Positions 5,389 to 60,340 of a DNA stretch of 64,000 bases are shown piece after piece. This stretch comes from Eledone cirrhosa (Eukaryota), in NCBI GenBank assembly GCA_964016885.1, contig OZ024742.1:276582001-276646000 (forward strand), given 5' to 3'. The notes beneath the pieces are model-generated. The model was not told the DNA's origin, did not search any database, and saw only the letters and a list, made by a program, of their open reading frames with translations. A program made the position numbers and the translations under genes. Within the stretch, counting starts at the first letter, position 1, and every line of letters begins with the position of its first letter.

Positions 5389-5960
5389 ATAATAATAATA
5401 ATAATGAAATTATTGTGTAAAGTGCTCAGGTGCACTACAACTCGTCAATATAGTACATAGAATAATACACAAATGCCAGGGAAGTACATGTTTGTATGTG
5501 TTAGCTGTAGTGTTGGCGGATCTCGGGAAGCATGGAGGCCTTAAAGGATGCAGTGTCTCGACAGCTAACAACTGATGCAGGTAGTTTGTTCCATGCTTCA
5601 GCAACTCTGAGCGTGAAAAAATGTTTCCGAAAGTCATGGGAACTGTGCTGTTTTCTTACTTTGTGGGCATGTCCACGTGTGTTAGACACATGGAAATCGA
5701 AAAGGCACTCAGGGTTGTTGTTGGCAACATGGTTAACAATTTTGTGGGTGTTTACCAAGTCAGTTGCCAGGCGTCGGAGCTTCAATGAATCCATGCCCAG
5801 GGAAGCAAGGCGCTCAGAGTATGGTAGATGCCTGATGGAGGGTATTCGCTTGGTTGCACGTCTCTGAACAGTTTCCAGGCGGTCAATGTCCTGAGCAAGA
5901 TAGGGGTTCCAGACTGGTGATGCAAATTCTAAGAGTGGTCGCACCATAGCTGTATACAGA
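5389..5960 (-). mobile_element. CR1-clade LINE, 5'-truncated 3' end
   Basis: ORF 5501-5947: VRPLLEFASPVWNPY...LETVQRRATK...TRGH...RKHFFTLRVAEAWNKLP is a typical CR1/L2 RT C-terminus, followed by a short 3'UTR and an (ATT)n tail at 5389-5405. The frame is uninterrupted, suggesting a young copy. Confidence 0.92.
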
Positions 5961-6254
5961 TATACCTAAACACTACAAGGCATTTAATTTATCACTCTAC
6001 TGTTTTTGTCACAGTAACATTATTATAAGGTAGCAGATGGCAAGGCACCTAACACTTAGTATTTAGTTATGTTCCTTTTGTTCTTAGAACACATTTCACT
6101 GGAGTCAACTTTCACTCTTTATTCTTTCGAGGAAGAAAGAGGGTAATTTATTGTAAAATAATTACCAGTCATATATTAGGGTTGATCCATTTGATTAAAC
6201 CACTTCAATAGAAATTCTTGTCCCTCTGCCATAGCAGGGAAACGCATAAATGAT

Positions 6255-13580: not shown

Positions 13581-14893
13581 TTGAGGAAAAACCACGGGTT
13601 TGTTCTATCAATAAAAGGCAAAGTTGTCAATAGGATTTTAAACAGTGAAGATCTGATTCAGCAACACTGTCCCACAAAATGGAAAACGAAAGAAAGGCAA
13701 ACAGAAACCAGGCTATGTGAAGTATATTCCTGGTTGCCTTAGGTATGACATCCAATTTGAAGAGTGAAATAGGTGAAGCTGCCAAGGCTGAGGCTGCTTC
13801 TCATTTCCCTACACCAGGATGAGATGGAGCCGACTTCTATATATTCTGTCTTGTCTAAGTAATCACCATGTTAAAATAATAGCATAGTAACCAAAGCTGG
13901 ACAAAACCTACGTACACTGACTTCATGGTTAATGTTATAAAGGAGAGTTGAAAAACGTCTATTCTCAGTAGAAGAACTTATTCCAACATTGAATAACAGA
14001 TGTTAAACCAATGACGATGATAACTGTGATCGCAATGACTGCATATGTTCCATTAATAGAGCAGCTTTTATACTTGAATCTTTCTAATCTTTTGTACTTG
14101 AATCAAAAGCTGTTTGCTTACTGGCTAGAAATACTGCACTATTGATAGCATTATTTGCAAAGTATTGAATTTTTGCTTTTTCCTTTCTTATTTGACAAAT
14201 TTTTCTTTCTTGTTTCTAAGTAACTGTATAGGTCACAACTATTAATTGGCTATAATCCACTTCATATTGGCAGTTTTAATATTCTGTTTTTATGCTTTAA
14301 GGTTCCTGCTATGAATATCCTAAAATGTACTTAATTATCATTACACAATGAGTTTTACTCTTGTATTTAATGAAATTATTGAAGGAGCCATATACTTATA
14401 TTAAATTGTTTACTATTTTAGCTCTTTGGCGATAATGTGCAGGAAAACAGGCTGGCTAGTATTGAATTCAAACTGTTTCCTTTGCAACAACCTGAGGTGT
14501 TAGGAAGGGCATCCAGCCATAGAAAGCTTGCCAAACAAGGGGTTTGGAGGATCCTTCAATTTGTGTCAAAAGATATCTTCTCTACACTTGATAATGACCA
14601 TACATAAGCGGGAGACAGACCTCCTTGACCTGTCTGGGATGTCAGTAGCCCCGTTTGATGATGATGATGATGAATCTGTTTGCCTCCCTTAAAATGACCA
14701 CTTGTATTTAACAGTTGAGTGGCTACAATATAAAATATAGAGCAAAACAAATAGTTATTCATGATAGAAATATATGTAGCAGTTGTTATAGTAAAAAGAA
14801 CATTATACTTAAAATAAGTTAAATTCAGCTAATGGGATGAATTTGATTCTTTGCCTTTGAAAAAGTTGAATTCTTTTTGTTTTGGTTGTGATC

Positions 14894-15030
14894 TCTGGTG
14901 TCTTCAGTCCCCAAGCAGCTATTTTTCTTTGCAAAATTGGGAGGAAATAGCCTCATGAGGTGGAGCAACTGATGCAGCAGGTGTTGTTAACTATTCTCCA
15001 TGGCAATGCCATCCTCATTTTGACCTTGGG
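14894..15030 (+). mobile_element. CRE-like REL C-terminal remnant (second copy)
   Basis: Translates SGVFSPQAAIFLCKIGRK*PHEVEQLMQQVLLTILHGNAILILT, which aligns with the end of the 7493-7849 ORF. Confidence 0.6.
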
Positions 15031-15168
15031 GCACAGCTGAGATATACAGCCAGGACTGAGGTGTAGTCTGCCACGCCCTACTTTCATTATTTAATTTTTT
15101 TTTTTATTGCGAACATTTGAGGAAATGTTTGTTTCATTCATTGAGTAATATGTTTGTTTTATAAGCAA

Positions 15169-15999
15169 CTAGCAGAATGGCCCGGCGTTGCTCGGGATTC
15201 TAAACATAGATTGGCATGTTTATCCCTCCTTTCTGAAACAGTTTCGTCGTATGTTTACCAATTGATGCAGAAATCCTAATAAAAAGTGAAGTCGCCTTGG
15301 GTGAATAGGCAAATAATTTTCCATTAAGATTTTTCAAAAGCATGTAATTGCGTTCCCTCTCTTTTTTGTTGTTGTTTTTGCTGCTGTCGAACCTTGTGAA
15401 ATAAATATGTTTGTTTATATTTTGTTATTGTGTATGCAAAAATATCTGTACACGAATATATAATTATATATATATATTAAATTAACAGATTAAAGTTTAA
15501 GCAAAGAATCGCTGCTTTCACCCTTAACGGGATCTTCTGAAACTAAAAAAAATCAATCTGTGAACGCAGAAGTAAATATTTCGAAAAGCGTTACACACTA
15601 TATATATATATATGTACACACACTATATATACATATATACACACACTATATATACATATATACACACACTATATATACATATATACACACACTATATATA
15701 CATATATACACACACACAGATAGTGTCATAATGTCGTAATGCAGACAGCCAGGCATACAGACAGGTATTATAAGAGCGTAACGTCATAGCTATGTATCTA
15801 TCTTAAAAGACAGACTAAGAAAAAGAGAGAGAGATCACTAGATCGCCTAATGCGGTCCCTAGGGCATTGAAAATTTTAAATAATTTTTGCTCACACGACC
15901 ATAACTATTACATGTGTAAAGTTTGAAAAAAATTGGTTGGGTGGTTCACGAGTTTTAGGGAGTCAGACAGACCGACATTCTCTGTTTTAGATATATAGA
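15169..15999 (-). mobile_element. Non-autonomous Helitron
   Basis: On the minus strand it begins A^TC (TCTATATATCTAAAAC) and ends CTAG^T, with a subterminal GC hairpin cccggcgttgctcggg (15181-15196) about 10 nt from the 3' end, an AT insertion site and an internal microsatellite. Confidence 0.88.
15615..15706. repeat. 23-bp minisatellite x4 inside the Helitron
   Basis: tacacacactatatatacatata repeated at 15615, 15638, 15661 and 15684. Confidence 0.9.
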
Positions 16000-16288
16000 T
16001 ATTCACTTACCTATTTATCAATGTCATATCTTATTAACGTTAATAAAGTACACGTAATAACAAATATTACTGTATTACATATAAACACACACATACACTG
16101 TCAATATAAATACATATGCATAAATTATCATCGTGGTTTTTACATGGTTTTCCTCATTGTCATTAACTGGATAGGATTTTTTGAGGCAGTCTTTACAGCC
16201 AAATGTCTTGTTACCAGTGCTTATCTTTTTGTATGTATCTCTCTTTTTATCTATCTATATATGTATGTACACACACACACATATATAT

Positions 16289-16778
16289 ATATAATTGAAT
16301 ATAAAAGAGAGATAAACACATATATGTGTTCAAATCGTAAGGGACTAGATTCGCTAGGGTGAAAAAAAATACTAACTATGAACAATAGGGTTTGAAAGAC
16401 TCAATTTAAAAGAATAAATTAAGAAATGAAATACAAACCAAAATTGCGACAACTGTCAGACACCCAGACAGCTTTTGGTAATGCTGTTTCATAAATTTAG
16501 TGATAGAGAATTACCAATTCTTTTGCTCATCAGTGCGCGTGAAATTAGTAAACCCTTCACTTCTAAGTATCTCAGAAGACTGAATAGTGGGCATATATAA
16601 AATAACGCACATGGCATCAGAACCTAGCGAATCTAGTCCATTACGATTTGAACACATATATGTATATATCTGTGTTTATCTCTTTTATATTCAATTATAT
16701 TACACAGCCCGGAAAAATTTCTTTCCGTGAGCTATTTAATTGTAAGAGACTATTTTGAGTTTCTAACTCAATATATAC
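16289..16778. mobile_element. Penelope-like (pLTR/retrozyme-type) insertion with ~70-bp inverted repeat
   Basis: Arm 16289-16358 is the reverse complement of 16623-16700 apart from small indels. The spacer carries a hammerhead, an ~80-nt unpaired extension follows the right arm, and the left end abuts (TA)n. Confidence 0.7.
16461..16539 (-). ncRNA. Type I hammerhead ribozyme
   Basis: Minus: cgcgca-CTGATGA-gca...tat-GAAA-cagc-attaccaaaa-gctg-TC-tgggtg. Complete core, perfect 4-bp stem III, GUC cleavage triplet, stem I 5/6 pairs, weakened stem II base. Confidence 0.8.
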
Positions 16779-17047
16779 CTTTTCATCATCATTATCATTT
16801 TACGTCCGCTTTTCCCTGCTTTTCCCTGATTTCTTTTTTTTCCCCCTCGGTCTTCTCTCATAACTTCGTTTTGTTTAAAAGGCTCTCGCTAGTCCCTCTG
16901 TTAGTATTCATTCCCCTTTTTCCTTCCCACACACCACTATAGCCATTTGGACCAATCAAAACTCAGCAGCACAAATACATTTCACTCTAAACTCAATTTC
17001 TATGGCAAAAGCTGCTTCTTCTGCTACTATTACTACTAAACATTATT

Positions 17048-17250
17048 AAGGGCTGGTTGGTGGATTGGCAGTATTGGTAGAGGCGTCGGACGCCATGCTT
17101 TGACGCATAGAGTTACAGCCCTTGCCATTCTGAGTTCAAATCCCGCTGAGGTTAACTTTGCCTTTCATCCTTACGGGGTCGATAAAATAAAGTACCAGTA
17201 ATGTACTGGGTAATTACTGGCCTGTGCCAAAAGTAGAAACAATTATTAAG
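17048..17250 (+). mobile_element. tRNA-derived SINE with Deu/Nin-like domain and (TTA)n tail
   Basis: tggattggcagtattggtagag A-box, gagttcaaatcccgc B-box, gcctttcatccttacggggtcgataaaataaagtaccag central domain, ccaaaagtagaaacaattatta tail. Dozens of copies in the window. Confidence 0.85.
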
Positions 17251-17439
17251 GGCTGGTTGTTTTATATAATACATGGACTTCTGAACTGGAGAATTCCTAA
17301 AGATGAATTTAAATCCACCTCCTGTCTCTGGATGACCATAAAAATGGTCCTATTTATTTCAGGCATCAAAAACTCAAACATCTCTCACTCACCTCCCCAA
17401 GCTTTCATCTTCCTCTCACCCTTCCAATGAACTCCATAA

Positions 17440-18445
17440 CTTCAGAGCTGGTATCATCAATGTAGGCATGATGAAAGGATGATCACATGAGATTGTAGAG
17501 ATGCTTGAACGAAAGAAAGCTGCTAAGTCAAAACCATTCTATGTGGGTGTCCAACCTCACCAAGAGTGCATTCTGTCACCTATCCTGTTCATAATTTTCA
17601 TGAACAGGATTGATATGCATAGCTAGGTTGGAGGTGGTATCAAAACTGGCAGGTGTGGGATCAGTAGACTGGAATTTGCAGATGACCTGATTCTACTTAA
17701 CTTGTCAGAAGGTAATCTCCGACATGTACTGGATAGGTTTGCTGCCTAACGCTACAGAGTAAGTATGAAAATCAGTGCTGCAAAGATTGAGACACTCGTC
17801 TTCTTAAGAAAGCCTGAGTAGTGCACTCTTCATGTGAGTGGATTTACATTGAAGCAAATGGAGAAGTTCAAGTATCTTAGGGCCTGTTTTCATGTGTGAT
17901 GGAAGGCATGGAGCTAAATTAAGTGTAAGAATTTCAGGAGCTGGTGCAATAATACACCAGCTTCAGCATTCGGTCATTAGTAGAAGAAAGGTAGGTGTAA
18001 AAGCCAAACTTGCTATCTTTAATTTGGTATTCATGCCAACCCTTACCTATGGTCATAGTTCTTAGGTAATGACTAAAAGAATATGATCACAAATACAAAC
18101 AGCTGAAATGAGGGTCGTCCGAAGGGTCTTTGGAGTAACGTTATTTGGTAGAGTACATAGATTGGAGATCCGGAGAGTCACTCTTGGTAATGCCATTACT
18201 TCTCCAAATTGTGAGATCACTGCTCTGATATTACAGACATATTGGTCAGAATGTCTAAAGAAAGAATAGCTGGACAGATTTTACTGGCAAGAGACCCAAG
18301 GGTTGACTCTAAGCAAGATGGTTGGATAACATCTATCAGCTTGGCTGGTCTCACTTAGGGATCCAGTCAGATCATTGGAGAGAGTTGCTTCTGACAGAAC
18401 TCACTGGAAGGTATGTCTGAGGATTCTGCCTCCATCACCCTCTCT
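17440..18445 (+). mobile_element. RTE-clade (Expander/Rex3-like) LINE remnant
   Basis: EN N-terminal RAGIINVGMMKG..EIVEMLER joined to RT SKPFYVGV...CILSPILFIIFMNRID...LEFADDLILL...EKFKYL and the 3' end; contains stops and frameshifts. Confidence 0.85.
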
Positions 18446-21400
18446 GTGGGCAAAGAAGAAGAGTTTTCTGGAGTAATATGCATTATTAAGAGAATTGTAG
18501 GGAGGCAAGGGATAATAGGTGGTATTCATGCTTCTTTAAAATTTTACTACGAAATGCAGTCCAGAGCAATGGACTGGCAAAATTGTTAGTGTTGGATGAG
18601 ATATCTTCTTTGTTTTGGCTCTTTGTATTCTGAGTTCTTGTGTAGTAGCAAACTTAATCCATTGCCTAGTTTAATATCAGAACCCTTAAACGATTTTTCA
18701 AAAATCTTGGAACCCATATCTATATTTTACAGACAATCCCAACTGTTCTAATTTTAATAAGATATTAGTTAAATTAAAAATTGTTTTAGAAAGAGATTTT
18801 TTTCATATTTAAAAAATATATCCATAAGAAATTTTTATTAAGTTTTATTAAAAGGTACTATTATCTATTCAAACCAACTTTGGGAAAGACTTATATACCA
18901 ACGGTTTACTGTGCTGTTGGTAAACAATACGGGAATGAAATAGACTTCTATTAGTTTCAATGACGAGTTGTTTGATCAATGAAGAACAGCCTTCTTGCGA
19001 AATTAACATTCCACAGGCATGTGTACTCTTAACGTAATTCTCAGGGAGATTCATTTGAATTTCAATTACAGTTCATCTGATAGGTTTCCCAACAATTTCT
19101 ATTTCACTCACAAGGCTTGGGTCAACTTGAGGCTATGGTAAATGACACTTGCCATAGAGAATACTATAGTTTTAATGGTACACTATTAATAATGCAGCAT
19201 ACTATGTGACTGTCAGTTTTACTTGGAATTTGGATAAATAATTATTCTTTTATTTGGCATTTTCATTCACACTGCTTACCAAATTGTGGTTGTTGTTATT
19301 GTAGTAGCTGTTATCTGTATTTGTTTTGGATGGGCCTTGTTCTTTATTTTTGTCACTTATTTATAAGGTTGTTTTTATCATCACCATCATCCTCATCACC
19401 ACCACCACCACCACCACCATTAATGTCATTGCACATCTTTCCCCATATTTCTGGCCCTGTGCTTATGTTAGAAATATTTTATAATTATTATTATTACATT
19501 TGGCAGAAATGGTAGACTATTGAGCAACATGCTGTATTTTATCTTTCATGACTGTGTTCAAATTCCACTAGGATTTTATGGGCACTGGCATGGCTATGGT
19601 TAAGAAATTTGATTTGCAATCACAAAATTTCCAGTTTGTCATCTGCTTGCTACCAACCCATGGGAGGAAAATTTAGTTGATGGAAACTGTACAGAATCCC
19701 ATCAGATATGTTCTTGGTGGGTGGTAGACCTAACTTTTTTAGTGGACTTCATGTGGACCAAGTGTGGGTTTGGTTTGAGGAAAACTAAACATCTTGGTGT
19801 GCTGTGCCTTATTGCAACAATGTATGCATGGTGAATTGGTAGAGTTATTAAAGCATCCTTTCACCTTACAGGGTCGATAAAATAAAGTACCAGTAATACA
19901 CTGGGATAATTGCTGGCCTTGTGCCAAAAGTAGAAACAATTATGGTATTTGTGTTCAAAATTCATATCCCATTGTGGCCTACATGGGTGGTAGATGTAAT
20001 CCATAGCTCAGTTTAACACCACCAGCATCTAGCCCTGGGTGCCTTTATCTGAGTCCTCTCTGTTGCAATCCCCCATTAGTCTTGGAGGCCCTGAAAAAGG
20101 CTATTGACACTACCCTTCTCTCCATGACTAAACAGTAAATAAATAATTTATAGCCCAAATGTGTGATCAAGTGAAACAGACTAAAACTTTGATTGTTTTG
20201 TCTGCTTTTTAAGAACTGAATTCACTAATCTACTCTTGTGTTGTAAGATGTCACACTATGACCTTAGGTAATGTATAATGCCAACAACAGCAATCTCAAG
20301 GTTGTTAACTAAATGTCTGGATAGTAAACTGAATGTCTGGCAATTTTTTTTTCTTTCGTATTATGAAATGTGAGTGTGAGAAAGAATGTTTTAATCTTCT
20401 GACTCCAAGAGGAAAAGATAGTAGAATGTAATTTTCCACATATTGGATGATATTTATTTTATCTACTATAGCTCATTGAAAGATTCAAGCTTCTTCCTAA
20501 CAAAACAGAGTTGGACATGCAGACACCATTGTGAAGCAAAACTCAACATTATACATTATTTGTTTATGGTTTAGTCAAAGGAAGAAGGTGCAATGGACCA
20601 GTTGGGGGTGTTGAATTGTTAGACCATGCAGTGTATGACCCCCCCCCCCCACACACACAAAAAAACAACAACAAAAATCTCTTTTCCTCACGACTATGAG
20701 AGAAGATATCTTCCCAAGGTGTTGCACACTAAGATTGAACACACCGCACATACACACACACAAATTTTGTTACCACTTGAAAGATTGCATTAAGCAATAA
20801 TATCAGAGTAGCCTTTGAACAAATAAATATACTCCAAACTCTTAAAAACCTGTGTGTGTGCGTACACGCGCACACCATCATCAGCATTGTGTAATGTCTA
20901 TTTCTTATACTTGCATGTATTAGATGAAGCTGACCAATCAAGTGACCACGTCTAACTCATATGTTTCATTTTTGGCATGGTTTCTATGGCTGGATGCCCT
21001 TCCTAATGCCAACCACTTTACAGTGTATATTGGGAGCATTTCACCATAGCACCAGCACTACTATTTTACAGAGTGGCCTAGGTACATTTTATCATGGCAC
21101 CAGCACTACCCTATTATAACATTAGGGTGCTAGTTGTAATTGTGTTAAAATAGATAGATATAGGAGTGTCTCAACAAATTTCTGGATTCAGCTGATCAAG
21201 ATCTCATCAACTGAAGTGGAGCTATACTGCTAGCATTTTCCAACATATCAGTGGAGTATGGAACAACAAACGCAGAGCCACTTCCTCTCAAGGGAAGCTC
21301 AATAATTTGGCAATGTATGGGCAGGCTGCCAGAAGATGCATGGAAAGATGGTTGAAGTGCATGTAAACTGAAGGTGGTTATGTTTGTATGGAGATTATCC

Positions 21401-28624: not shown

Positions 28625-30240
28625 AATAATAGTTGTTTTTACATTTGGCACAAAGCCAAGAATTTGAAGGAAAGGCAAAAGTCAATTAAATCAACCCCAG
28701 AGCATTACAGGTACTTTATTTTATTGACCCTATAAGGATGAAAGGCAAAGATGACCTCAGCGGGATTTGAACTCAGAAAGCCAAGGGACGTAACTATACA
28801 CCGCAAAGCATTTTGTCCAACGCTCTACCAATACTGCCAATCCACCACCCATAATATTAATGAAAAGAAAAACAGATGAACTAAAAAAGATGATGAAAAA
28901 AAAAGATGTTAGTAATAGATCAAATGCAATAAGTAATAGACATGGTCACGTGAGACATTTTCTGCAGTGCTCTACCCTTTGCCGCTCCACCTGATTATCT
29001 GCTGCCATCATAATGATGATGATTTCTAATTTACATTCAAAGGAAAGGGGAAAATTCATTAAATTGACTCCAGTAACAGACATGGTTGCACAAAACATTT
29101 TCTGCTGTGCTCTACCCTTTATAATAATTTAGGATAATAATTGTTTCTACTTTTGGCACAAGGCCAGCAATAACTCGGTACATTACTGGTACTTTATTTT
29201 ATCGACCTCGTAAGGATGAAAGGCAAAGTTAACCTCGGCGGGATTTGAACTCAAATCGTAAAGAGACGTAACTATGCTGGAAAGCATGTCCGACCCTCTA
29301 CCAATACTGCCAATTCACCGCCCTATTGATGATGAGGATAATAATAATAGTTGTTTCTACTTTTGGCACAAGACCAGCAATTACCCCAGTGAATTACATG
29401 CACTTTATTTTATCAACCTCGTAAGGTTGAAAAGCAAAGTTAACCTCGGTGGGATTTGAGCCCAGAATGTAAAGGGCTATAACTCTGTGTTGCAAAGTAT
29501 GGTGTCTGACGCTCTATTGATACTGCCAAATAATGATGAAGATTTTTAATTTATGTACAAAGGAGAGGGGAAAGTACATTAAATTGACTCCAGTACTTGA
29601 CTGGTATTTTATTTTATCGACCCTCTCAGAAGGATGAAAGGCAAAGTTGACTTTGAGATTTGAAGCCAGAGCATAAAAAGCCATAACTTAATGCATTTTG
29701 TCCAACGTTTTAATGATTCTTTCAATCCAATAATGATAATGATAAAAATTAATAACATAGGCATAAAGCCAAAAATTGTAGAGATAGTTTAGTCAATTAG
29801 ATCAATTCTAGTATTTGACTGGTACTTTATTTTATTGACCTTGGTATAAAGAAAAGCAATGTTAACCATGGCAGGATTTCAACTTGGGCATTTCAACCAA
29901 TGGTCTAACAATTCTACTATGGCACAAAGCCATTCATTTTATAGGAGAAGAATATAGTATTTGACCTAGCCTAATGATTCTAATCAAAGCATTTCATTTA
30001 ATCTGCTGCTGATTCTGGAATTTCGCTACTCTAATAATAGTAATCATTATTTTAATTAAAATAATTACCATTTATTTATTGATTATATAGGCAACGAACA
30101 TGATTTTTCTTAATCATATATGAAGTTTATATAAAGGGAAGCATAGTCAGTTAAATAAACCTCAGTATTTTATTGGTACTTATTTTATGATTCCTATTTG
30201 GAAGCCAAGCAAAGTCAGTTCTAGGCTAATTCAAATTTAG
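28625..30240 (-). mobile_element. Head-to-tail array of about 7 Deu/Nin-type SINE copies
   Basis: Repeated ggtactttattttatcgacc..aaggatgaaaggcaaagttaacctcggcgggatttgaactc...ctctaccaatactgccaa units separated by (TAA)/(TGA) tracts. Confidence 0.85.
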
Positions 30241-37211: not shown

Positions 37212-37423
37212 AAAATTTATGTTTAGAATTAAAAGATATAATTTAAGATAAGATTAGAAAAGTAAGATTTAGGTTTAAAGTTGGGAGATTTAGTTAAAGA
37301 ATTTGCAGAAGGAAGCATTTATGAAAAGGTTAAATGTATTATTGTATTATTGATAGTCATAATAAAGTTTCAGGGTAGAATATAAAGTTAAGATTAAGAT
37401 TAAAAAGTAAGATTAAGCCCAAG

Positions 37424-37974
37424 TTTAAGAGTACTGTTTGGCGGTCAATAACCAGTGACGTGATGGACTCCCAGCCCACCCAGGGCCCAATGGCGTGTCA
37501 ACTGTTCCGAGTATTTTGGTCTACCGAAAGAAAGGGAAATTTATTTTTCCAAGCACTCCAGGAAAGTTAATTGTCTCAAGCGCGGGGGATGCTAGCGAGA
37601 AGCCCGCCACTGCCAGCTGATCATCGCGTATACCAAACGATTATTAGTTATTCACACTAGTGGGGGATTTAGTTAAAGAACTAGTAGAAGGAGGCATACA
37701 TTTTTAGAATAGGATTTAAAGTTAGGATTTAAGCTTAGAATTTAAGAGTACTGTTTGGCGGTCAATAACCTGTGGCGCGGCGGATTCCAAGCCCGCCCAG
37801 AGCCCAAGGGTGAAACAGCCATTCTGAGTATTTTCGTTTACCAAAAGAAGGAGAAATTTATTTTTCCAAGCACTCTAGGAAGGCTGATCGACTCGAGCAC
37901 TGGCCGTGCAAGCAGGAAGGCCGCCACATCCCTCGGATCATCGCGTGTACCAAACAATTATTAGTTATTCACAC
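37424..37974. repeat. Direct tandem duplicate, 2 x 234 bp (period 317), GC-rich core, unknown family
   Basis: 37424-37657 vs 37741-37974 align without gaps (about 46 substitutions by hand count). Both are preceded by a related ggg.gatttagttaaagaa...(TTAAGA/TTAGGA)n linker at 37282 and 37662. Confidence 0.9.
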
Positions 37975-38437
37975 CCATGGTGTGAAGTTTAAAAGTAGCA
38001 AAATCTGATGAAATGGGTAAGGAGACTATATTCAATCCCAAGTTAGCCAGGGTTATTTGAATTTATATGCAGTATGATTCCTGAGTGGTAGGAGGAGTAA
38101 TTAAAGATAAACAGATATAAAGGGTACAGAAAGTAATATTCTAGTGTTGTGCGCTTATTTTAGGTAACATTACCTATATATATATCTAGAGTGCTTAAAA
38201 TTATTTGTGACTAATCCCGGTCTTTTTTTTTTTAAAAACCGCGATAATATTGCTATTTTGCTGAACTCCTTACATTTTGTAGAGTTTTTTCGGAATGTTT
38301 TTTGACTGCTGTTTCTTGTAAATAGACATTCGTCCATGTGTGTTTATTTTCATAATTACGCACGAGGTGAGCTAAGCCTGCTTTTAAATTCCCTTTTTGG
38401 CATATTCTAACAGTGAGACTAGGGTTATCGTGTTTGA

Positions 38438-38516
38438 GCTCTACTGATGAACGACTCCAACCGTGACCATCCCCACTGAAAAGTTACGTGAAATAGTCTT
38501 TAAGACTATATAGAGC
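38438..38516 (+). ncRNA. Type I hammerhead ribozyme, intact
   Basis: gctcta-CTGATGA-acg...cgt-GAAA-tagtctt-t-aagacta-TA-tagagc: 6/6 Watson-Crick stem I, 3-bp stem II base, near-palindromic stem III, AUA triplet, predicted cut after 38510. Confidence 0.88.
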
Positions 38517-38781
38517 ATTTGTAGTTTTTCCAAATTGAAGGATGAGTATTTAAACTTTATTTTATTCAGAGTTAAGACTCTATTGGTTTTTCCCTGATTT
38601 CACAAAATCTTTGGATAAATCTATGTCTTGATTTTTTTTTAATTGAGTTTGAATTATTTTCCCACATCTTACGTTAATTATTTTTCCATTTTGACGTTAT
38701 AGTCACTTATATATTATGAAATACTGTTGGATTCATGCTCACATTAATTTCTATACTTTCATTTATATGTATATATATATA

Positions 38782-39150
38782 TATAGTTAAATAAGATAAC
38801 AAGGATGATTGGTTACTCCTTCATTACGTTTATTGGTTGGTGATGTGCGTTTCGCCACTGACCAGCTCCAGGTTTGATCTGTATCAATCTGATCTGACTC
38901 TGTAATCCACGGCTCATCAGACAATTACAGAGTCAGGTCAGATCCATTCAGATCGAACCTTGAGCTGGTCAGTGGCGAAACGCGCATTACCAACCAATAA
39001 ACGTAATGAAGGAGTAACCAATCATCCTTGTTATCTTATTTAACTATAATACACTCTGTGTAGCTCTACACCTTCACACTGAAGTGAACCTAAACATCGA
39101 GTGCTCACCCGGGTGAACCTACAGTAACTCCAAGTTACACTCCCTGGATA
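38782..39150. mobile_element. Penelope-like pLTR insertion: 125-bp inverted repeat plus ~100-nt extension, flanked by (TA)n
   Basis: 38782-38906 vs 38924-39048 are reverse complementary (8 mismatches, 17-nt loop), each arm carries AATAAA, and (TA)n lies at 38765-38785 and 39148-39170. Confidence 0.8.
38837..38924 (-). ncRNA. Type I hammerhead ribozyme, minimal stem III, partly decayed
   Basis: Minus: ttgt-CTGATGA-gcc...ggc-GAAA-cgcaca-TC-accaa, then AATAAA. The other arm reads ggcGAAAcgcgcatta, implying an ancestral palindromic stem III acgcgcgt. Confidence 0.72.
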
Positions 39151-39849
39151 TATATATATACATATATATAGGTAATACAGGCAGGTTAACCGAGAATATA
39201 AACTAAGAATGTAGTCTATTGCTCCTTATTAGCTATTCACACCATGACTGTGCACCCCACCCCTACTCTATTCAAGATCTAAATCCTTACATCGCCCCAC
39301 TCTATCCAGGATGACCCTTACCCTTGCCCTTCTTACACCCTCACAAACCAGTCAACTCTTTAGTAGCTGTTCTCATCATTACAGTACTCCTATGCTATCA
39401 GCGGTCACTTTTTCTCTTCCACTTGACATACTTTCTCACCTCTCCTACATATCATACACATACCAATGGCGCTATACTGATCGTCCTTCCTATCTTCCAC
39501 CTGTCCTATCAACCTCTCATAGTGTAGAGAGGGCTTTCAGTTGAATAAATGTTTAATACCCTCCCTGGTACTGGTAACACAAAAAAAATTCACCCAGTAC
39601 AGCTTGTAAGATGGTTGGTGATAGCAAGGGCATCCGGCTGTAAAAACCAAGCAAAAAGGCTTGAAAGGTCTTTTCAGTTGTGTCAGGATGAGGAGGTCAC
39701 TGTCATCTGTTTTTGAGGTTGCCTATGATTATTCTAAGCTTGACATCAAATATTGTAAGTACCTTAATTACATCTATCTACTAGGAAAATGTCTATTCCA
39801 CCTATTGCTTCATTGTTTCCTATCCAGAAGAGCTTATATCTGCAAGGAA

Positions 39850-41150
39850 TCTAACTGAGATTCCTCTCCACCTCACTTCCTGTACACAGCACACAAATAT
39901 ATGCCTCCATTCAAGCATCTCCACAATTTTCCCTGATCTCCCTTTCATTGTATCAACATTAAGGGTGGCAACCTAGTGCTTGGCACATTGTTATACAGCT
40001 GTCATTTTACTTACTCCTCATATGTCCATACCAGTGCAATCATCTTTTTTTGTACACTATTATCTGATTCCTCTTGTATTCAGATTTCCATTCAGCAGAG
40101 TATGCTTGCTTCAGTTCTTTCTAACCCATGTAAATCTTCTTCATTTTGGGCTCACATCTTGCTACCTTGCAGCATAGCAGTTCAAACATAGGCATCATAC
40201 AACCTGCCTTTCATTCTGAAAGTGGAGCTAGCAGAAGTAACAATTACACTTTTGGTACATCCATCTTCACTGCAAATGAGGTCACCAAGATAGCAGAAAC
40301 TGTCTACTTCTTCTAGTGAACCTTTTGAGCACATGTCACATGTGAAATCTACCTTTTCTGTCAGCATACTTGTCATTCCACTACATCTCTTGTGTGCCCA
40401 CTGTCCACACTGAGAACACTGTATAGAGTTTTCTACCTACTCTTTTTCTGCAATTTCAGCATGTTCGTTTCCTTAATAGTAGCAGAGTCCTATCCTTTTC
40501 CTACTTACAAAGATTTTAGACTTAGCTAAGTTTATATTGAGGTCCTTGCATTCCAGAATCTGCTTCTATGTGTAGAAATTCTTCACTAATTCATCTACGC
40601 TCGGGTCTTGAATAATTGTCTCCTACTCCCTTTTAATTTTTCAGATTTTTTTTATTCCAATATCGCTCATTAAATTTAGCTAATCTAGCTCCTCCAGCAA
40701 AATTTTATTTTAAGTGGTAGCATTAATCAATTTTCTTTAGACATTAAAAAACATTATACATGACAAAAAAAGAGACATTACAAGAAATCTCATACATTAT
40801 AAAATACATAGGATGGGTTGGGGTCTCTATATGTAAACTAAACAACTAATTCTGGTTTTTTTATTTTTTTATTGAGACAACCTAGAAAAATTATAAATTT
40901 TCTAACCCCACTGCTTATTCCTCCCCGTCTATTATTTGGGACCCGAGTTCTTTCTGCAATGAAGACCAGGCCATAAGCATACAAGAGTTCCTACAAGCAA
41001 CCAGTCTTGAATTCCTCTGCTTTGGCCTGGAGGGCTATAAAAATAAACATGAGGGAGCTAGGAAGTGAGCCCTGATGGACTTCGACCTGCATACTAAATT
41101 TGTTGCCAACTATCACCTTCCTGGCTCCTCTTCTGCATATAAGAATAAGG
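39850..41150 (-). mobile_element. RTE-clade LINE remnant with Cys-rich insert in the RT region
   Basis: FSMQVEVHQGS...EEFKTGC (41000-41110); SIQCSQCGQWAHKRC; FTCDMC..SLEEVDSFCYLGD..; MKGRLYDAYV. Interrupted by a MITE. Confidence 0.8.
40598..40948. mobile_element. TIR MITE (pogo/Tigger-like) nested in RTE
   Basis: ctcgggtcttgaataat vs the reverse complement of attatttgggacccgag; AT-rich interior. Confidence 0.6.
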
Positions 41151-44009: not shown

Positions 44010-45805
44010 CTATTATTATTATAAGGATTGGCAGTATCGGTAGAGGGTCTGATGCCATGCTTTGCAGCAAAGGTTAACTTTGCCTTTCACCCTTATGGAG
44101 TCTATAAAATAAAGTACCAGTAATACACTGGGATAATTGCTGGCCTTGTTCCAAAAGTAGAAACAATTATTATTATTGCCTTTCATCCTTACGGGTCGAT
44201 AAAATAAAGTACCAGTAATGCACAGGGGTTAATTTCATCAACTTTCCCAATCCCCTAACATTGCTGGCCTTGTGCCTAATCAGAAACCATTATTGTTATT
44301 GTTGAGAGTGGTGGATTGGCAGAATCAGTAGAGCATCAGACAACATACTTTGCGGCATATAGTTACAGCCCTTTACATTCTGAGGTTACATCCTTATGGG
44401 GGTCAATAAAATAAAGATCCAGTAATGCACTGGGGTCGATTTCATCGACTTTCCCCTTCCCCAAAATTGTTTGCCTTATGCCTAAATCAGAAACCATTAT
44501 TATTATTATTAAGGAATAAGGGCGGTGGATTGGCAGTATCGGTAGAGGATCGGACGCCATGCTTTCCAGTATAGTTATGTCCCTTTACGATCTGAGTTCA
44601 AATCCCGCCGAGGTTGACTTTGCCTTTCATCCTTACGGGGTCGATAAAATAAAGTACCAGTCATGCACTGGATAATTGCTGGCCATGTGCCTAAAGTAGA
44701 AACAATTATTATTATTAAGGAATGATATAAGGGTAATAGAATGGCACAAACTGTAGTGAAGAAAGCAAAATTCCTTGTACTATTTCTGTCATTTTTATAT
44801 TCTGAGTTTTCTTTTGTTTTTCAACCTTCCAGGGTTGATAAAATAAACACCAGTCAAGTACTAGAATCACTAAATCATTTATATTGTCTTAAAGTTTGAA
44901 GTTTTGTGTCTAAATTAGAATAATTATCATTACTATTATTAGGGCAGTGGGTGGCAGTATCGGTAAAGTGTCAGACACCATGCTTTGCACCATAGTTATG
45001 GACCTTTACGTTCTGAGTTCAAATCCCACCGAGGTTAACTTTGCCTTTCGGGGATAAAATAAAGTACCAGTAGAGTACTGGGATAATTGCTGGCCTTGTG
45101 CCAAAAGTAGAAACAATTATCATTACTATTATTATGAAGTGGTAGAATTGGTAGAATATCAGACTAAAATCTCTGGAAGTATTTTGTTATGTCTCTTTAT
45201 GTTTTGAGTTAAATCTCACCTTTCATCTTTCTGTGATTTTTAAAATAAAATACCAACCAAATATTGAGACCTATACTGTGTCCTTCCCCAGATTTGTGGC
45301 CTTGTGCTTATGTCAGAAATCACTATTGTAATTATTATTGTTATTATTAGTCTTATTTTTATTGGGTATGTGCAGTGTTGATTTTGGTGTTATTTTTAAT
45401 GTATTCAGTGTAGTACTCTTCATAATATGTGTGTAGTGCCTAGTAGTGCTATTGTTTGTATGCTGTATATATTTGTAAGTCCTGGGGTTTGGGTTATGTA
45501 TCTGCCTATGTGCTTTTTATCCCCACGGCACCTATTATTGTTATAGTTCCCGCCAAGGTTAGCTTTGCCTTTCATCCTTATGAGGTTGACAAAATAAAAG
45601 CACCAGTAATGTACTGGGATCAATTTAATCGACTTTCTCCTCCTCTCAAATTATTGGCCTTGTGCATAAAGCCCTTGCCATTCTGAGTTCAAATCCCGCC
45701 GAGGTTAACTTTGCCTTTCATCCTTACGAGGTCGATAAAATAAAGTACCAGTAATGCAATGGGTAATTGCTGGCCTTGTGCCAAAAGTAGAAACAATTAT
45801 TATAG
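44010..45805 (+). mobile_element. Head-to-tail array of about 9 Deu/Nin-type SINE copies
   Basis: Repeated ggattggcagtatcggtagag...gagttcaaatcccgccgagg...gtcgataaaataaagtaccag...agtagaaacaa(tta)n units. Confidence 0.9.
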
Positions 45806-45839
45806 TTATTGTTTCTATTTTCATCATTTTCATTCAGTT

Positions 45840-46879: not shown

Positions 46880-49380
46880 CTCCTCTAGATATTTGCTGTT
46901 CCTAAAAGTGTTGTTTTCTGCAATGTTGTAATGCTGGAACTGATTCCAATTCTATCAAGGTTTTTCTGGAGGTTTTCTTTCACTGACCCAGGTGCTCTTG
47001 TCATAATTGCTTTCATATTCCACATTTTCTTGACATCTATTCTCTAGTCTGCATACTTTACAATTTTCTCATGTTCTTTACCATTAATGTAATGGTCTCC
47101 TTGCCAAGCTACATTGATCATCAAACATCTATCATTACCTTTCTCCACCAAAGTTATGTCTATTTTCAAGAATTCTATATGTCTGGATTGTGAAATCCCA
47201 CAAGAGTTTCACAGTCTGATTTTTTAGGACCTTCTCTGGTTTGTGCTGATACCATTTCTCAGTGGTTGCAAACCCATATTTCTTACATAAAGCCCATTGG
47301 AGGTGTTAGTACACTTTATCATGATGCCTTTTATATTCCTTCTTTGCAAGCATGTCACAGACACTCACATTGTATGTTACACTTTCCACCTTCTTCCTAC
47401 ATAAGCTACATTTATTTATATCATCTGGGTTATACATATTCCTTATAATGTTTGTTTTGTGCTTGATTTTGAGCAGCTGTTAAACTTTCTGTCTTTCTCT
47501 TAAGATCACCTTTTGTCAACCAAACCAATTCCATGAATATCCTACTTCTACTTCCTTTGTTTCTCTTTCAAATTGACCATGTAATTCCATATGCTCCCTT
47601 GTAGTCAATTTATGAGCCAGCAACCTCTGTTTGTAATTTTTAAAAAATTCCAATAGTTTCAATGTATAGGCTGATGTTATTTATTTTGAGAACAATACCT
47701 TAACATCAATATAAGTGGTCAATTACAACCAGTTTGAACAGAAAGAGGTGAGAGAATTCTGGCCAGATATAGCTGGTTTAAATGCTAAAAGGTTAAAAGT
47801 ATTTTTACTACTGGTCAAATACTAGTCTAAGAACTTACATTCATTAGCCACGCAATCTTTCACAATTACAAGTCCTAAGCCTCTTACATTCCTCAGTCTA
47901 CATAGCCTCATGACATTTGCCCTTGGGTGCAATGCACCATTGTTAACCATTTTCTTACACATTAGCCTATCCAACTTCTCTATCACTTCTTTGGTCCAAT
48001 TCAGAACAGCTGCACTATATCTAATAACTGGCACAGTTGTTTTCAGTAGCAGTTCTAACCTATTTAAATAGACTTTGTTCACATTTCCTTTCATTTTCTC
48101 ATTTAGAAATTTGTTAAGCTCCAAAATGCCCAGATATTTGTACCCACTATCCTCTTGGTGGCCAATCGACTCTGCATCAGATGACTCAATCCCACCATTA
48201 TGTACATGCCTACCTCTCTTTATATTTATAGTGGCACACTTTGCAATACCAAACTCCCAATGTCCCCACCAGTGGACAGTTTTGTCCAGTGAGTCAACCT
48301 AAGATTCCTTCTTGCATAAGACCATTGATAATGGAATCGTGGCAATCACAAAGAGCAACAACAAGAAGGAATCTTCTTGAAATATTCCTTTTCTTATATT
48401 GACCACACCTATGTATTTATTTCCTGCATACAGGTTTGTCTTCCACAAAGGCATGCTAGACTCTATTACATTAATAACAGTCTGCTATCCTAAACATTCT
48501 CAAACATTTCAGTACCCATGAATGTGGGACCATGTCAAAAGCTTTCTTAAAGTCTATCCAAGCCATGCATACATTTTTTAGACATCTTTTGCAGTTATTC
48601 TTGATCACCTTGTCAACAGCAAAATCCTCTTTGTTTCCTTGAGAGTTTTCCTACAATTGACATGTAGCATCTCATTCTGAAGCAAGTGATCTTACACTTT
48701 TGCAGCAAAACAAATTCAAGCAAACAATTGGCCTGTAATTTCCAACTAACAGACCTATCCTTTTACCCTTCATTATCAAAGTTGTCTTTCAACCATCTAA
48801 CTTGGAACTTCTTGTATTACACAATCATTTAGGCGCTTCCCTAGCTTTGAAAGAACACCTTTAAATCTTTTCAACCACAATCTTTGAGTCCCATCTAATC
48901 CAGGAGATTTCCAGTTTGGCATTTTCCTAACTTGCTCTTAACGTCTTCTTTTGAAATTCTTTCTCATCTGTTTTGGTTCATTAGATAATTTAAGCTCAAC
49001 TTCATTTATCCATCCATCTTTGTTATGCTCTTTTGCCATCTCCGATAGATTTGGCCATAATTGTGTGGATTCTTCAGCATTAGGTGCAACTTCTGCCCCC
49101 TTTTTTCCTGGGTATTGTAAAGAACATTTTCTGATTTGCAGAGAACATTCTGTTCTGTTTATATTGTTTTTTTCTATTTGTGTAGCACCTACACCTAACT
49201 TGATTAGATTTTGTCTTAATTCACTGCTTCACTTTTTCCATCACTACATTAAAACCTTTCAACTTCATTTTATACCTTATGGCCATGCATCATTTCTCCC
49301 TTACTTTGGCCTTTTTCCATTTTCCTCTATGCTGTGCATCCATTTTACCTAGATCTTTCCTAAACTTAGTTGTATCACCT
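46880..49380 (-). mobile_element. Longer R4/Dong-like retrotransposon remnant (RT + REL)
   Basis: NWKSPG.DG, AWIDF.KAFDMVPH, KGIFQEDS, YKYLGILE, VPVIRYSA...KLDR...GALHPRANV.RL..GLGL, LQKTTLLGTA. Interrupted by a partial MITE-B at ~47680-47795. Confidence 0.85.
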
Positions 49381-53900: not shown

Positions 53901-56900
53901 GTAACTAAATTGATTTTTATATTTTCAAGTATAGATTCAGTTCCTAAAGCTGTTTTTTTTTTCAACTGAAGTTTTGAGGTAATGAAGAAATTCTTTAATG
54001 CATTTTATGTTGTTGCTGTTTAACCTCATATTAGCCTTAATGAAGCAAGCCTATGAACAAAGGCACTCCAGCAATGACCATCCTAACTTATGGACCATGG
54101 TATGATTTGAGGGGAGTTGGCTGTTATTTTTAGCAACACAAGTAATCACAGAAGTTCCTCATTGGCCTGTTAACATTTATTATAATACTAACAGTGAGGG
54201 TGGTGGATTGGCAGAATTGTTAGTGTATTGGATGAAATGCATTGCAGTATTTCATTATGGCTCTCTACATTCTAAGTTCAAATCCTGCCAAGGTCAACTT
54301 TGCTGTTCATCTTTCTGGGATTGCTAAAACAAAGTATTAGTAAAATACAGCGGTTGATATAATCGACTTTTTCCTCTCCACAAATTGTTGGCCTTGCACC
54401 TGAATTAGAAATCATAATAGTAATGGAATTAGGTATATATGAAGGTACTAGTGTTATATCAGAAATACGAAACATATCAATAAACTCCTCTTCATCATCA
54501 TCATCGTTTGACATCCATTTTCCACACTAGCATGGTAGGACAGGCTGTCCCTTTCTGAGAGATCAAGTCGGAGGACTGTATTTCGCTCACACAGAACTGA
54601 TTTTGACTTAGTTTCTACGGTTGGATGCCATTTCTAAAGCCAACCACATCCACAATGTGTTCTGGATGCTTTTTGTCATGACACCTACACGACTGCTTTA
54701 CAGTGTGGATCATCAATGATGTTTCTATGTTTTCTCTCATTATTATATCTATATTCTTGTCTTTGTGATTTACCTCATACCAATTGGCATTGTCAATAGA
54801 ATCAAAAAAGGACATTGCTGTGAAAGCTTGGTTGCTATGAATCAGTTACCTTTATGGTCACATTTCTGACAGCTCTGTTGATGCACAGTTTGCCGCTATT
54901 CAGGCCTTGTCTTCACAGTCTGTATTTGTTCTAAAAAATCAAGTGACCTTTTGCTCAACTGACACTGTTCTCAATTAAGGGTGATGCATAGGTTTCATCA
55001 ATGTTTCTCAAGGAGTACAACTTACACAGCAAATTTGGCACTAGACAATGAACTCCCACTCGGTGACTCTCTTCATTGTGTCAGTACGGTACACCTTGGC
55101 TTACATCATTTCAAGTTTCATCATTTTCAAAGTTACAGCAGTTTTTCTTAATATTATATGGCAAAAATAAACCTCATGTTATGTCAATTGACTCAACTTT
55201 ATGTCGGTCTGCCAAAAATATTAAACCATAAAAAAAAAAGAAAAACATAAAATCACATATATGGCGGTACCCCAGCATGGCCTCAGCTTGCTGGCTGGAA
55301 CACATAATAGAGTAAATAAATGCATAAAGTAAGTAGGGAGTGCCTGTTAGCAGTTTATAGGGAGGTTAATTCGACATTCATCATTTTTCAATTTAAGTCT
55401 TGACTTCTTGAACCAATTAAGAATGTAGGGTTAGGTATAATTGTATTATATCGGAATGTAAATTATGTACTTCATAACTGTATGTTTTCTATATTGATGT
55501 ATTATATAAAAATGATGAAATTAAGAAAACATTTCTTATTCCACAAGGTAGTAAATTTTATGCTACCAAATGTAATGTGTTAACAATGCTGGGTATAGTC
55601 CTAACTAAATCTTTATATCACAGTTCCGTCTGAGCAAGGTACGCCACAGCCAGCGTGCCAGACTTGTCTCATGACGTGGGCGACCTGTCTAACCCATGCA
55701 GGCATGGAAAAATAGACATTAAACGGTGATGATGATAGTTAATTTAGCTAATCTTTCTGCAAATTAAACTTTTTTCTGTTTTACATGAAATAAACAAAAA
55801 CACAAGAAGGAAAACTTATATTTTATCAAATCATATTTTATCAAAAACATGAAAAAAAGTAGCTGGTATGCTCATTGATACAATGAAAATAGAAATAAAT
55901 TACAATATAGAAATAAAATATTATGTGAGCCTTGGAATAATTAATAATTTTTGCATTGGTTAGATGGCTTGTCACATTTTGAAGCTAGACTAATCAGGTG
56001 ACTATGTCTTGCTTGTATGTTACATTTTTTGCTGGATGCACCTCCTAATGCCAACCATTTTACAGCATATACTGGGAACATTTTATTGTGACTCTGGTAC
56101 TACCACCTTACAATGTGGATTGGGTGCTTTTGTCGTGGCATTAATGCTACCACTTTGCAGAGTGTGCTAGGTATATTTTTCATCATGACACCATCATTGT
56201 GTGTGGTAGGGTGCATATCACCACAGGATAGGAAGCGTCAAGTCATGGGGATGGCTTTGGGGAGAGTGAGTTGTTTGGCAGCATATTGGGAAGCATGCCT
56301 AGCTTTCCATGCTGACATGGGTTGGACAAAGGAGTGAATCAGGTAATTGGGTGGGAATGGATGGAGGGCACATCTTCCATGCTGGCATAGGTTGTGCAGG
56401 GAAGTGATTTGGGGATAGGTTAAGGTGGAAAGAGGAGCACCATATGGGTGGGTGTGGGAACACTTTTTTTCCTTTCTGTGCTGACATGGGTTAAATGTGG
56501 GAAGTGGATGGAGGTGGTATTTGGGGATTGTGTGGGGAAAGATAAGCTTAGGAAAGTGGACAGGAGGGTTGGGCCTATCTACTTCTCTCTTTCTTGCATT
56601 TCACCCCATTCTTGAGGAAAGGCACAGTACAACCTATTGTCAATTGACTTGGTCTTGAGTCATTTCCTTCGTGAGGTTCAGTGTTGGGAGGTCACTCTTA
56701 ACTACATCATCCCAAGTTTTCCTAGGCTTCCTCCTTCCACAATTTCTATTAATCTTGAGCACCCTACACTTTTTTATGCAGCTGTAATTCTTGATATGCC
56801 TCATATGTCCAAACCATCATAGTCTTCTCTCTTGTATACAGCATCTAATCCTATGTTCAGCTTTTCTCTCAGTTAATTTATGCTTCACCTCTCATTCCAT

Positions 56901-58092: not shown

Positions 58093-58500
58093 TCATCCCA
58101 GGTTTTCTTGGGTCTCCCCCACTCCGCGGCTTCCATCAACTTCTAGTGCTCTGCACCTTTTTATGCAGCTGTCATCCTTCATACGCATCACATGTCCATA
58201 CCAACGCAACCTCCTCTCCTGCACACACCATTTGATTCCTCTTATGCTCAGTCTTTCTCTCAATTCGTTTATGCTTTTCCGTTTGTGTATATTACTATTA
58301 CTCATCCATCGGAGCATGCAGGCTTCGTTTCTTTCTAATCTACACAAGTCTTCTATAGACAGCGCCCAGATCTCACTACCATGTAACATTGCTGTTCGTA
58401 TGCACACATCATACAGTCTGCCTTTCATTTTGAGGGAAAAGCCTTTTGCAGCTAGCAGTGGCAGTAGCTCCCTGAACTTCTTCCATCCCGTTCTTACCCT
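58093..58500 (-). mobile_element. RTE-clade LINE RT C-terminal fragment
   Basis: RVRTGWKKFRELLPLL...KGRLYDVCIRTAMLHGSEIW...RRLRWYGHVMRM. Confidence 0.9.
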
Positions 58501-60340
58501 AAAAGCAGACATTAAAACAATGATGGTGATAATAATGATGTAAATTTCACATTGATAAAACTAAAACATTCTGAGAATATTGTGATATTAGATTAAAAAC
58601 ATAAAATGTCTGAGACACATTATGCTCTAACAATGTTTCCATTATTGGTAAGAGTTTTGCTGCCTCTATGATCTATATAAAAGGAGAAACAAAAGGTTCC
58701 ATACACTCATCATACACAGAGGAGAAAAGATATGATTTGACAATGACCTTAGTCAATATTTTTACCATAATAAATGCTTGTAAAAATTAAAGTGAAATAA
58801 TCATTTTGCAACAGGTGGTATTTTCTGCCATGGAAAGTTAGTTTATAATTTATGATAATGATAATATTACAACAGGAACAACAAAAAAGAGGACACTAAT
58901 ACAATTCTAGACAATAGCACACAACATGACATCCACCAATATAATTGTATAAAAAATATTAAATTTTGTTGTTGATCCAAATGGTTGACTCCTCTTTATA
59001 TTCTAATATATTTTACCTTAATAAGGTGTTACAAGAGTAAATTGACAGATGCTAATGTTAGGAATGTAACTTAAAGAAATCTATTTGGTTTAGTCTTCTA
59101 TGATGTGATAGTATTAAAAATAATATTTTCACTCAGAGAACCAGAGCATACTGCAAATTGGGACCATCCTTTTTGGTAACCAGATGACTCCTCTATGCTT
59201 CAGCTTCCAGATATAACCAAGACATTCACCTACATCAAGCTTTCCACCCTTGCCTACACATTTTAATCTTTGTTTTTCCATATAAGTTGAATGTGTCTGC
59301 ATATCCCAAACTCACTTCATGTGTCTTCCTCTTTGGGTGTATTCCAATATCAGAATAAAGCTCTTGTAATTTTAAAATGACATGGATATTTCCAGTCCCA
59401 GTTTCTAGTTTGAATAATACTTTGTGTATCCATGATTTTTATGGTTTCCTCCACTTGTGGGAATTGTATTGTTTCAGGACAAAGTCTATGATTATTTTTT
59501 TTATTCCCTGTTTCTATAATGCCTTTTCCTGTTTTCTCCATTCACAAATCATTTTTATTTTTTTAGTTGCTTGATTGCCATATTAGTTGGCATATTCAAC
59601 ATCTTGCAACTTTTAACTAATTCTATATGTTTGTCTTCTCTGCTTAATGTGTAGAGTTGCAGCATGGTGTTGTCAGCTACAGATGGTGTCAATTTCAGTG
59701 CTATTCTGCCTGTCTGCAAATGGTGTGTAAGGCATCATTGTTATCAATTCACCATATGCTAAACAAAGCAAATATCATTCAGTTACTAGTAGTACCCACT
59801 AAATCATAGTAAACATTTTAGTAGTTACTATCGATGCATTACAAAATAGTAATCATAGTACTCTCAAACGTCACTCAATAACTTGACCTTTTATTGGTCT
59901 GGGGTGGTTTTATTTTAACGTATTGTTTTTGATCTTCAATAATTAAGGTTGTTTAAAGAATAACACTAAAACACCTATCTTGACAAGTAGTTTAATATTA
60001 TAGATAATTAAATAATGTAATACAAGAGATTATTCTTGAAACACATGGGGTGGTCATGATTGGAAGGTACTTAATTTTAGGATTGACCTAGGATAGGTCA
60101 TAATAAGCATAATATATCCAGAGCACTCTGGTTTGCATTAAATTATCAAGTTGGCCATTTATATGTCATATGTCTGCTCGATGTGAGTTGATCTTGAGCT
60201 AGACAACTTGCTAACGTTGCTTGCTATGTGATTGCTCAACCTACTTGAAGTAGCAATCTGTTCTCCCTCAAATCATGCCCCTTTATCTTAAAAAGTAAAA
60301 AAAAAAAAACATATCTTATCATGTAGCCTTAAATACACTA

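Follow-up and report, generated by a model that had tools for sequence, protein, structure and literature searches.

The stretch of DNA analysed here (the window, 64 kb) is AT-rich, eukaryotic-looking, and full of microsatellites and retroelement debris; its dispersed repeats are reminiscent of those of octopuses. It contains a 367-nt segment dominated by an inverted repeat whose two 125-nt arms, 17 nt apart and 94% complementary, match each other far beyond chance (E 6e-86 in self-BLAST). The arms differ at eight positions, all within the inner 65 nt; their outer 60 nt pair without a mismatch. A preliminary description of this DNA had given the same arm positions, mismatches, and loop, and both the repeat search and self-BLAST bear it out. 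The inner clustering of the mismatches has a P of 0.004 (about 0.05 with CpG sites set aside) for a 65-nt boundary that was picked post hoc. For either strand of the whole element a very stable hairpin is predicted (−232 and −228 kcal/mol).

The two arms belong to units of unequal extent (Table 1). The extension at the right end is family sequence to at least 39139, as indicated by high read depth; positions 39140–39176 were masked as repeat in read mapping, which limits how closely the family end can be placed, and beyond 39180 the depth is that of unique sequence (13.8 in run X1). The outer edges of the element adjoin (TA)n runs on both sides, a feature that, like a second hammerhead at 38438–38516 (+), was absent from the preliminary description. 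The left run and the end of the left arm share about 4 nt (38782–38785), a possible priming microhomology. The left arm terminates in an AU-rich linker at the letter equivalent to family position 39048; another locus also stops at 39048 and continues with TATATA (126 reads in run X6). Any target-site duplication would be hidden by the (TA)n in both flanks; there is no microhomology at the inversion joint of this copy, and BLAST found no second copy of the hairpin element within the window. The flanks 38761–38782 and 39148–39169 are inverted copies of each other that include a single interrupting base (95% over 22 nt), possibly by chance.

Table 1. Features of the hairpin element and of the neighbouring hammerhead
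Feature	Position	Strand	Contents or remarks	Basis
Second type I hammerhead	38438–38516	+	Not part of the hairpin	Strict descriptor
Left (TA)n run, putative target	38764–38781			Sequence, repeat search
Left arm, inverted "short" unit	38782–38906	−	3′ part of helix II, GAAA (38853–38850), mutated helix III, AUC (38844–38842), AATAAA (38834–38829)	Repeat search, family letters
Degenerate type I hammerhead	38839–38922	−		Sequence versus family majority letters
Loop, 5′ end of inverted unit	38907–38923	−	One non-family nt, 2 nt of helix I 5′ strand, core CUGAUGA (38920–38914), start of helix II	Sequence and family upstream letters
Right arm, direct "long" unit	38924–39048	+	5′-truncated inside helix II	
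Extension of ~100 nt, one end only	39049–39148	+	Equivalent of the "tail" of Penelope-like elements (PLEs)	Family read depth
Right (TA)n run, putative target	39149–39170			Sequence, repeat search

Hammerhead Sequences at the Locus

The loop carries the 5′ half of a hammerhead core on the minus strand, and the plus strand of the right arm carries the GAAA half only (38977–38980), followed by AATAAA (38996–39001) and the extension; in both respects the preliminary description was accurate. Its claim that the minus strand encodes one full hammerhead did not hold. The family's helix I 5′ strand is cut at the inversion joint, leaving 2 nt, and A stands in the left arm at the letters (38846 and 38844) equivalent to family positions 38984 and 38986, so that the G of pair 15.2–16.2 and the palindrome of helix III are lost. 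Such a palindrome is a requirement for cleavage as a dimer. Helices I, II, and III of an active hammerhead cannot all be formed by this copy, and the strict hammerhead descriptor does not match it. A search of the whole window against Rfam gave no hits at gathering level, and in 38100–39400 at E ≤ 10 it gave 10 hits, none of them a hammerhead and all under the gathering score. The free fold of 38830–38930 (−) differs from the hammerhead fold (z −1.48). With its short helix I strand and mutated helix III, this copy probably no longer has a working ribozyme.

The helix II region spans 60 nt in this copy (38913–38854; 3 bp plus 54 nt) and is predicted to fold alone at −14.6 kcal/mol. The stem II insert of about 55 nt described previously was correct in length, but not as an insert in this copy: on the evidence of the reads, the long helix II (a region of about 60 nt) is a family trait. 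It had also been proposed that the hairpin would compete with ribozyme folding. In a minus-strand transcript of the whole element, a fold with the core forced reaches −163.9 kcal/mol against −228.2 kcal/mol for the hairpin; the predicted cost of about 64 kcal/mol upholds the proposal in energy, although it is probably moot for a ribozyme that is truncated and mutated.

A Very High-Copy Repeat Family

Four public read runs were mapped on 38895–39344 (loop, right arm, extension, and right flank). In run X1 the summed depth over 38955–39029 is 1.9–2.8e5, compared with 13.8 in the unique flank; the ratio of 14,000–20,000 is no copy number and was taken only as "many thousands". Matching contigs number 4,440 in X1, 148 in X5, and 22 in X4, which is another organism, and X6 yielded 1,717 raw reads. 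Loose ends before 38924 (93 contigs in X1 and 274 reads in X6, median 50–65 nt) lead upstream, on the same strand as the right arm and without a break, into the start of helix II, CUGACGA, and a G-rich strand of helix I. The family 5′ half thus reads GGGGU-CUGACGA-GCU and the 3′ half, in majority letters, GAAA-CGCGCG-UC-ACC; the consensus predicted beforehand was right in its 3′ half and wrong in its 5′ half (ttggt-CTGATGAgcc). G at 38986 accounts for 95% of X1 depth and 537/562 reads in X6, and C at 38988 for 99% and 558/562, respectively. Judged by these letters, the type I core of the family is complete and its helix III palindromic; the loose ends place that core on one strand. Over about 9 bp the variants in one helix II strand appear to complement those in the other, but being unphased they are no measure of covariation.

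Family letters were taken from the 40 listed of 95 differences. Three minority letters are common to both arms (38968, 38986, and 39024; the alternative letter makes up 98%, 95%, and 95% of X1 depth), which fits a single template and also arm-to-arm conversion. The tail end (39135–39148) could pair with the family's G-rich helix I 5′ strand, and five of its letters match the start of the X1 upstream consensus, which could reflect either long-range pairing or a circular monomer. Metagenome and viral contigs contained no match to a 26-letter family motif. A more permissive, gapped core pattern matched nine times in each of these contig sets; all 18 matches lie in DNA of 54–73% GC, none is BLAST-similar to the element at E ≤ 1e-3, and they were rejected as chance. 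The element contains no ORF in its three sense frames. The family is very probably a very high-copy, hammerhead-bearing pLTR repeat of PLE type.

Inversion Joints and 3′ Ends in Other Copies

Fifteen joints, listed of 23, comprise nine opposite-strand joints and six same-strand skips with unknown middle, which were left out, as was one opposite-strand joint (38980–39028) that cannot be oriented. Head-to-head order is fixed in six of the remaining eight, where the matched side exceeds the reference's 30 nt of inverted sequence; for the other two, both at 38949, it is the likelier order. An extra contig contains an inverted unit, 16 more upstream letters, and then a direct unit from 39038, and its joint (38920–39038) is built like that of this copy. 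In the nine usable joints the direct unit starts at 38963, 38987, 39038, 39061, 39077, 39079, 39084, 39097, and 39098; inversion points thus differ among copies, as the preliminary description had anticipated. Seven of these nine starts lie at or beyond 39031 (P 0.037 versus a uniform start; 7/10 with this copy added, P 0.078), a weak statistic in that short-read contigs under-recover hairpins and eight joints lie beyond the 15 listed. With most listed joints starting there, most such copies would be without arm duplication.

Short 3′ ends at 39031, 39035, 39039, and 39048 lead into TA-rich sequence; some loose ends at 39031 represent a variant linker that continues within the family. The reads and the sequence of this copy establish that the 3′ ends fall into two classes, that the units stand head to head at variable joints, and that (TA)n flanks them.

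Surrounding Sequence

The hammerhead at 38438–38516 is intact-looking in sequence, with a helix I of 6 bp, a helix II of 3 bp plus 33 nt, a stable helix III of 6–7 bp, and an AUA site. It is the only strict match in the window, and 300 resampled 64-kb windows gave none. It has no BLAST match to the hairpin element. Two (TA)n runs enclose the segment of about 580 nt that contains it; the same microsatellite may therefore have been hit twice. The outer flanks of that segment and of the hairpin element (38169–38186 and 39149–39176) form a palindrome around (TA)n (18/20 nt), and the empty site may have been a single (TA)n run with two insertions. An ATG in the core of this hammerhead may open a decayed frame; read with X at stops, the frame has no homologue, which is weak evidence, the comparison having been made with longer proteins only.

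Upstream, 37388–38003 is a tandem dimer of a GC-richer unit of 315–317 nt (77% identical) that ends in a 19-nt imperfect palindrome resembling 39226–39252; no hammerhead was found in it. Pfam searches of 150 of the 182 window frames gave two hits, a PHD finger at 40185–40436 (−) above the cut-off and another below it, and no reverse transcriptase (RT) or GIY-YIG domain. The PHD finger probably belongs to a decayed LINE frame, one related to 58093–58560 by a shared dispersed repeat. Frames 5501–5965, 47822–48298, and 58093–58560 (all −) resemble C-terminal fragments of non-LTR retrotransposon proteins; none has a Pfam hit. Clusters of a SINE-like dispersed repeat occur in both orientations at 17088–17255, 28634–29890, 44063–45820, and 54189–54437.

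Proposed Mechanism of Insertion

In our view the 367-nt segment likely arose by a single old insertion of a pLTR-type repeat, hammerhead-bearing and present in very many copies, that was moved by a PLE reverse transcriptase/endonuclease. An inverted, 5′-truncated pLTR integration product had been proposed from this copy, and the family core on one strand and the variable head-to-head joints bear that proposal out. Cleavage by the PLE endonuclease would break a (TA)n run in both strands. From one of the resulting ends cDNA would be primed at the far site (~39140–39148), and from the other at the AU-rich linker about 100 nt upstream (39031–39048); both cDNAs would extend toward the RNA 5′ end, halt at variable points, and be joined head to head. 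That both cut ends prime one RNA is a step toward which we lean slightly, and joint starts mostly beyond 39031 are expected if two primers share an RNA. Usually the first cDNA would halt near the second primer; in this copy it would have reached 38924 and the second 17 nt further, and the overlap of the two would have left 125 nt duplicated as a hairpin with the 5′ core half in the loop. The hairpin would then be a by-product of integration. The family ribozyme likely cleaves as a dimer via its palindromic helix III.

The accessible portions of several PLE papers describe comparable events. PLE insertions often occur with an inverted, 5′-truncated copy and a tail of 30–40 bp at one end (PMC8557442; PMC3846280; PMC8969392). 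The purified protein of the Anolis element Poseidon acts on both strands of AT-rich DNA, which it cleaves and extends; it begins at two internal sites on the RNA, and these define the tail. An active hammerhead is not required (PMC11167929). With no RT or GIY-YIG frame found nearby, the link of our element to a PLE enzyme rests on anatomy. That anatomy does not fix the clade, (TA)n being also a reported target of Naiads, which are described as having no canonical hammerheads in the part of the source available (PMC8557442).

The family could instead be a non-LTR retrozyme, a tandem or circular monomer of about 240 nt processed by its own hammerhead, a reading that is compatible with PLE mobilisation and that we regard as unlikely. 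The lack of an ORF in the sense frames suits it, as do the size class and the type I hammerhead (PMC7229834, in the sections available). The upstream loose-end consensus in X1 begins with five letters identical to 39135–39139, as in a circular permutation; that in X6 differs at one of the five. Against this, the upstream loose ends match nothing in the stretch, this copy is not tandem, and no head-to-tail ("go back") joint occurs among the 15 listed of 23, a set of tables from which one joint and 20 loose ends near 39140–39176 were left out.

Insertion from one RNA primed twice also has to be weighed against another route within the same family, in which an antisense template folds back and primes itself to give the inversion; rotifer Penelope elements have been proposed to follow it (PMC3846280). 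Fold-back would give the head-to-head order and a loop continuous with the inverted unit (PMC3846280), and the origin of both arms from one template fits it as well. We find it distinctly unlikely: no pairing is possible at the loop base in the present sequence, and the tail cannot come from a strand that begins at 39048. Fold-back must, moreover, duplicate the arm, yet seven of nine joints start the direct unit beyond the 3′ end of the inverted unit.

It is also improbable that the hairpin owes its origin or its homogeneity to DNA-level events later than the insertion, namely a replication template switch or conversion between arms. The confinement of mismatches to the inner 65 nt, with the P values given above, is what such a process might leave, and two of the minority letters shared by both arms are CpG-type changes. 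The perfect outer 60 nt could likewise be explained by arm-to-arm conversion. Conversion could account for this outer identity, but not for the origin of the hairpin; the loop occurs only in the inverted unit and the tail only in the direct unit, so that neither contains the other, and the same geometry is found in other copies.

A selected hairpin, whether regulatory (a miRNA or siRNA precursor or an ADAR substrate) or ribozyme-switching, is very improbable. The predicted hairpin energies and the cost of forcing the core on the minus strand would agree with it, but any inverted duplication gives such stability, and Rfam miRNA matches are far under their gathering scores (best, 39.6 of 94 bits). 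The preliminary description had named the hairpin as a candidate ADAR/Dicer substrate; no host exon was found in the 150 of 182 window frames scanned. At all three A/G differences between the arms the left arm seems to have lost a G to A, two of them at CpG (a direction shown for 38984 and presumed for 38937 and 38955, which are outside the 40 listed of 95 differences), and such losses are not A-to-G marks of editing. Editing of the template RNA was considered as a source of the mismatches and rejected on account of this apparent direction.

A foldback MITE with fixed termini, the case named earlier as decisive against an integration product, can be given almost no weight: a long inverted repeat does lie between TA dinucleotides, but it is not terminal, a 100-nt extension is present on one side, joints vary and most of those listed are without arm duplication, and the family carries a hammerhead core.

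Relation to Known Elements

The resemblance to EN+ PLEs with inverted pLTRs and a tail, such as Pen2a of Adineta vaga, extends to the head-to-head inverted, 5′-truncated unit, the extension at one end, variable truncation, and a microsatellite target, as far as the available text of these studies describes them (PMC3846280; PMC8557442). The inverted copy with variable joints is found both here and in the nine joints of other copies, and (TA)n occurs here and after short ends elsewhere. The type I hammerhead with a short palindromic helix III is present in the family and degenerate in this copy. The element differs in having no ORF between or beside the repeats, and no autonomous partner was found in the window frames scanned; without an RT plus GIY-YIG ORF, this copy is not an autonomous PLE. 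Its tail is about 100 nt, compared with the 30–40 published (PMC8557442; PMC3846280). Terminal inverted repeats and fixed termini, the marks of a MITE, are lacking.

Minimal or PLE-type type I hammerheads of metazoan pLTRs, in the part of the literature available, share a short helix I, an enlarged helix II, and a small palindromic helix III suited to dimer cleavage, and are mostly single dispersed motifs, as here; in Schistosoma, pairs occur on opposite strands 100–700 bp apart (PMC4209133). Helix II of metazoan PLE hammerheads is given as 6–8 bp in the accessible sections (PMC4209133; PMC6765202), in contrast with the 60-nt region of this element; hammerhead stem lengths are described as variable (PMC3088659, in part). 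Poseidon of Anolis (PAc) is similar in its two classes of 3′ end downstream of the hammerhead and in its AT-rich target. The PAc ORF starts at helix II and priming is non-homologous, according to the available portion (PMC11167929), whereas no ORF is seen here and the linker in which the short ends lie is AU-rich and could pair with (TA)n. Animal non-LTR retrozymes, as outlined in the accessible text, are likewise short, non-coding, high-copy, and equipped with a type I hammerhead, and are thought to be PLE-dependent (PMC7229834; bioRxiv 10.64898/2026.07.22.740005). This copy differs from them in being inverted and not head-to-tail.

A parallel to the preferred mechanism lies in another enzyme class. 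Ostertag and Kazazian are said to have described twin priming of L1 in 2001, in which the second target end primes internally and an inversion with a variable joint results. In L1 twin priming the first cDNA usually stops near the second primer. The present family differs in that the internal site is clustered, and this copy in that its cDNAs would overlap by 125 nt. Variants of PLE hammerheads have reportedly been described by Lunse et al.

Novelty and Significance

The architecture is known from PLEs, and save for its long ribozyme arm and tail the element is mostly ordinary. The family was not found in the literature searched; repeat libraries (Repbase and Dfam) and supplements were outside the scope of that search and may already record the family or its long helix II. 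Judged by titles and the beginnings of abstracts, the literature on hammerhead ribozymes in octopus contains nothing on this family, and (mainly by the same means) that joining Penelope with twin priming contains nothing on PLE inversions. The phrase "long stem II" is absent from the papers listed in the literature search. Repeat annotation of Octopus vulgaris includes active Penelope families, ribozymes being unmentioned in the part available (PMC13282606). It is possible, if somewhat doubtful, that we are dealing with an undescribed, non-autonomous, PLE-dependent family of the order of 10^4 copies, with a conserved, roughly 60-nt rod as helix II, a tail of some 100 nt, and joints that record twin priming on a single RNA, the second target end annealing to an AU-rich linker and the first cDNA usually stopping close to that linker.

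As a decayed repeat, this one copy is of little importance; the family could be of more, the points of interest being its long helix II, its ~100-nt tail, and a junction spectrum that can serve as a test of PLE priming. Helix II is far longer than in the PLE hammerheads of the papers cited and bears on the tolerance of the fold and on whether the PLE protein binds helix II. The PLE papers cited, in the portions available, leave the origin of inverted pLTRs and tails unsettled, and the family constitutes a large natural data set on PLE integration. If twin priming is true, thousands of natural junctions would test the origin of PLE tails and of head-to-head inversions.
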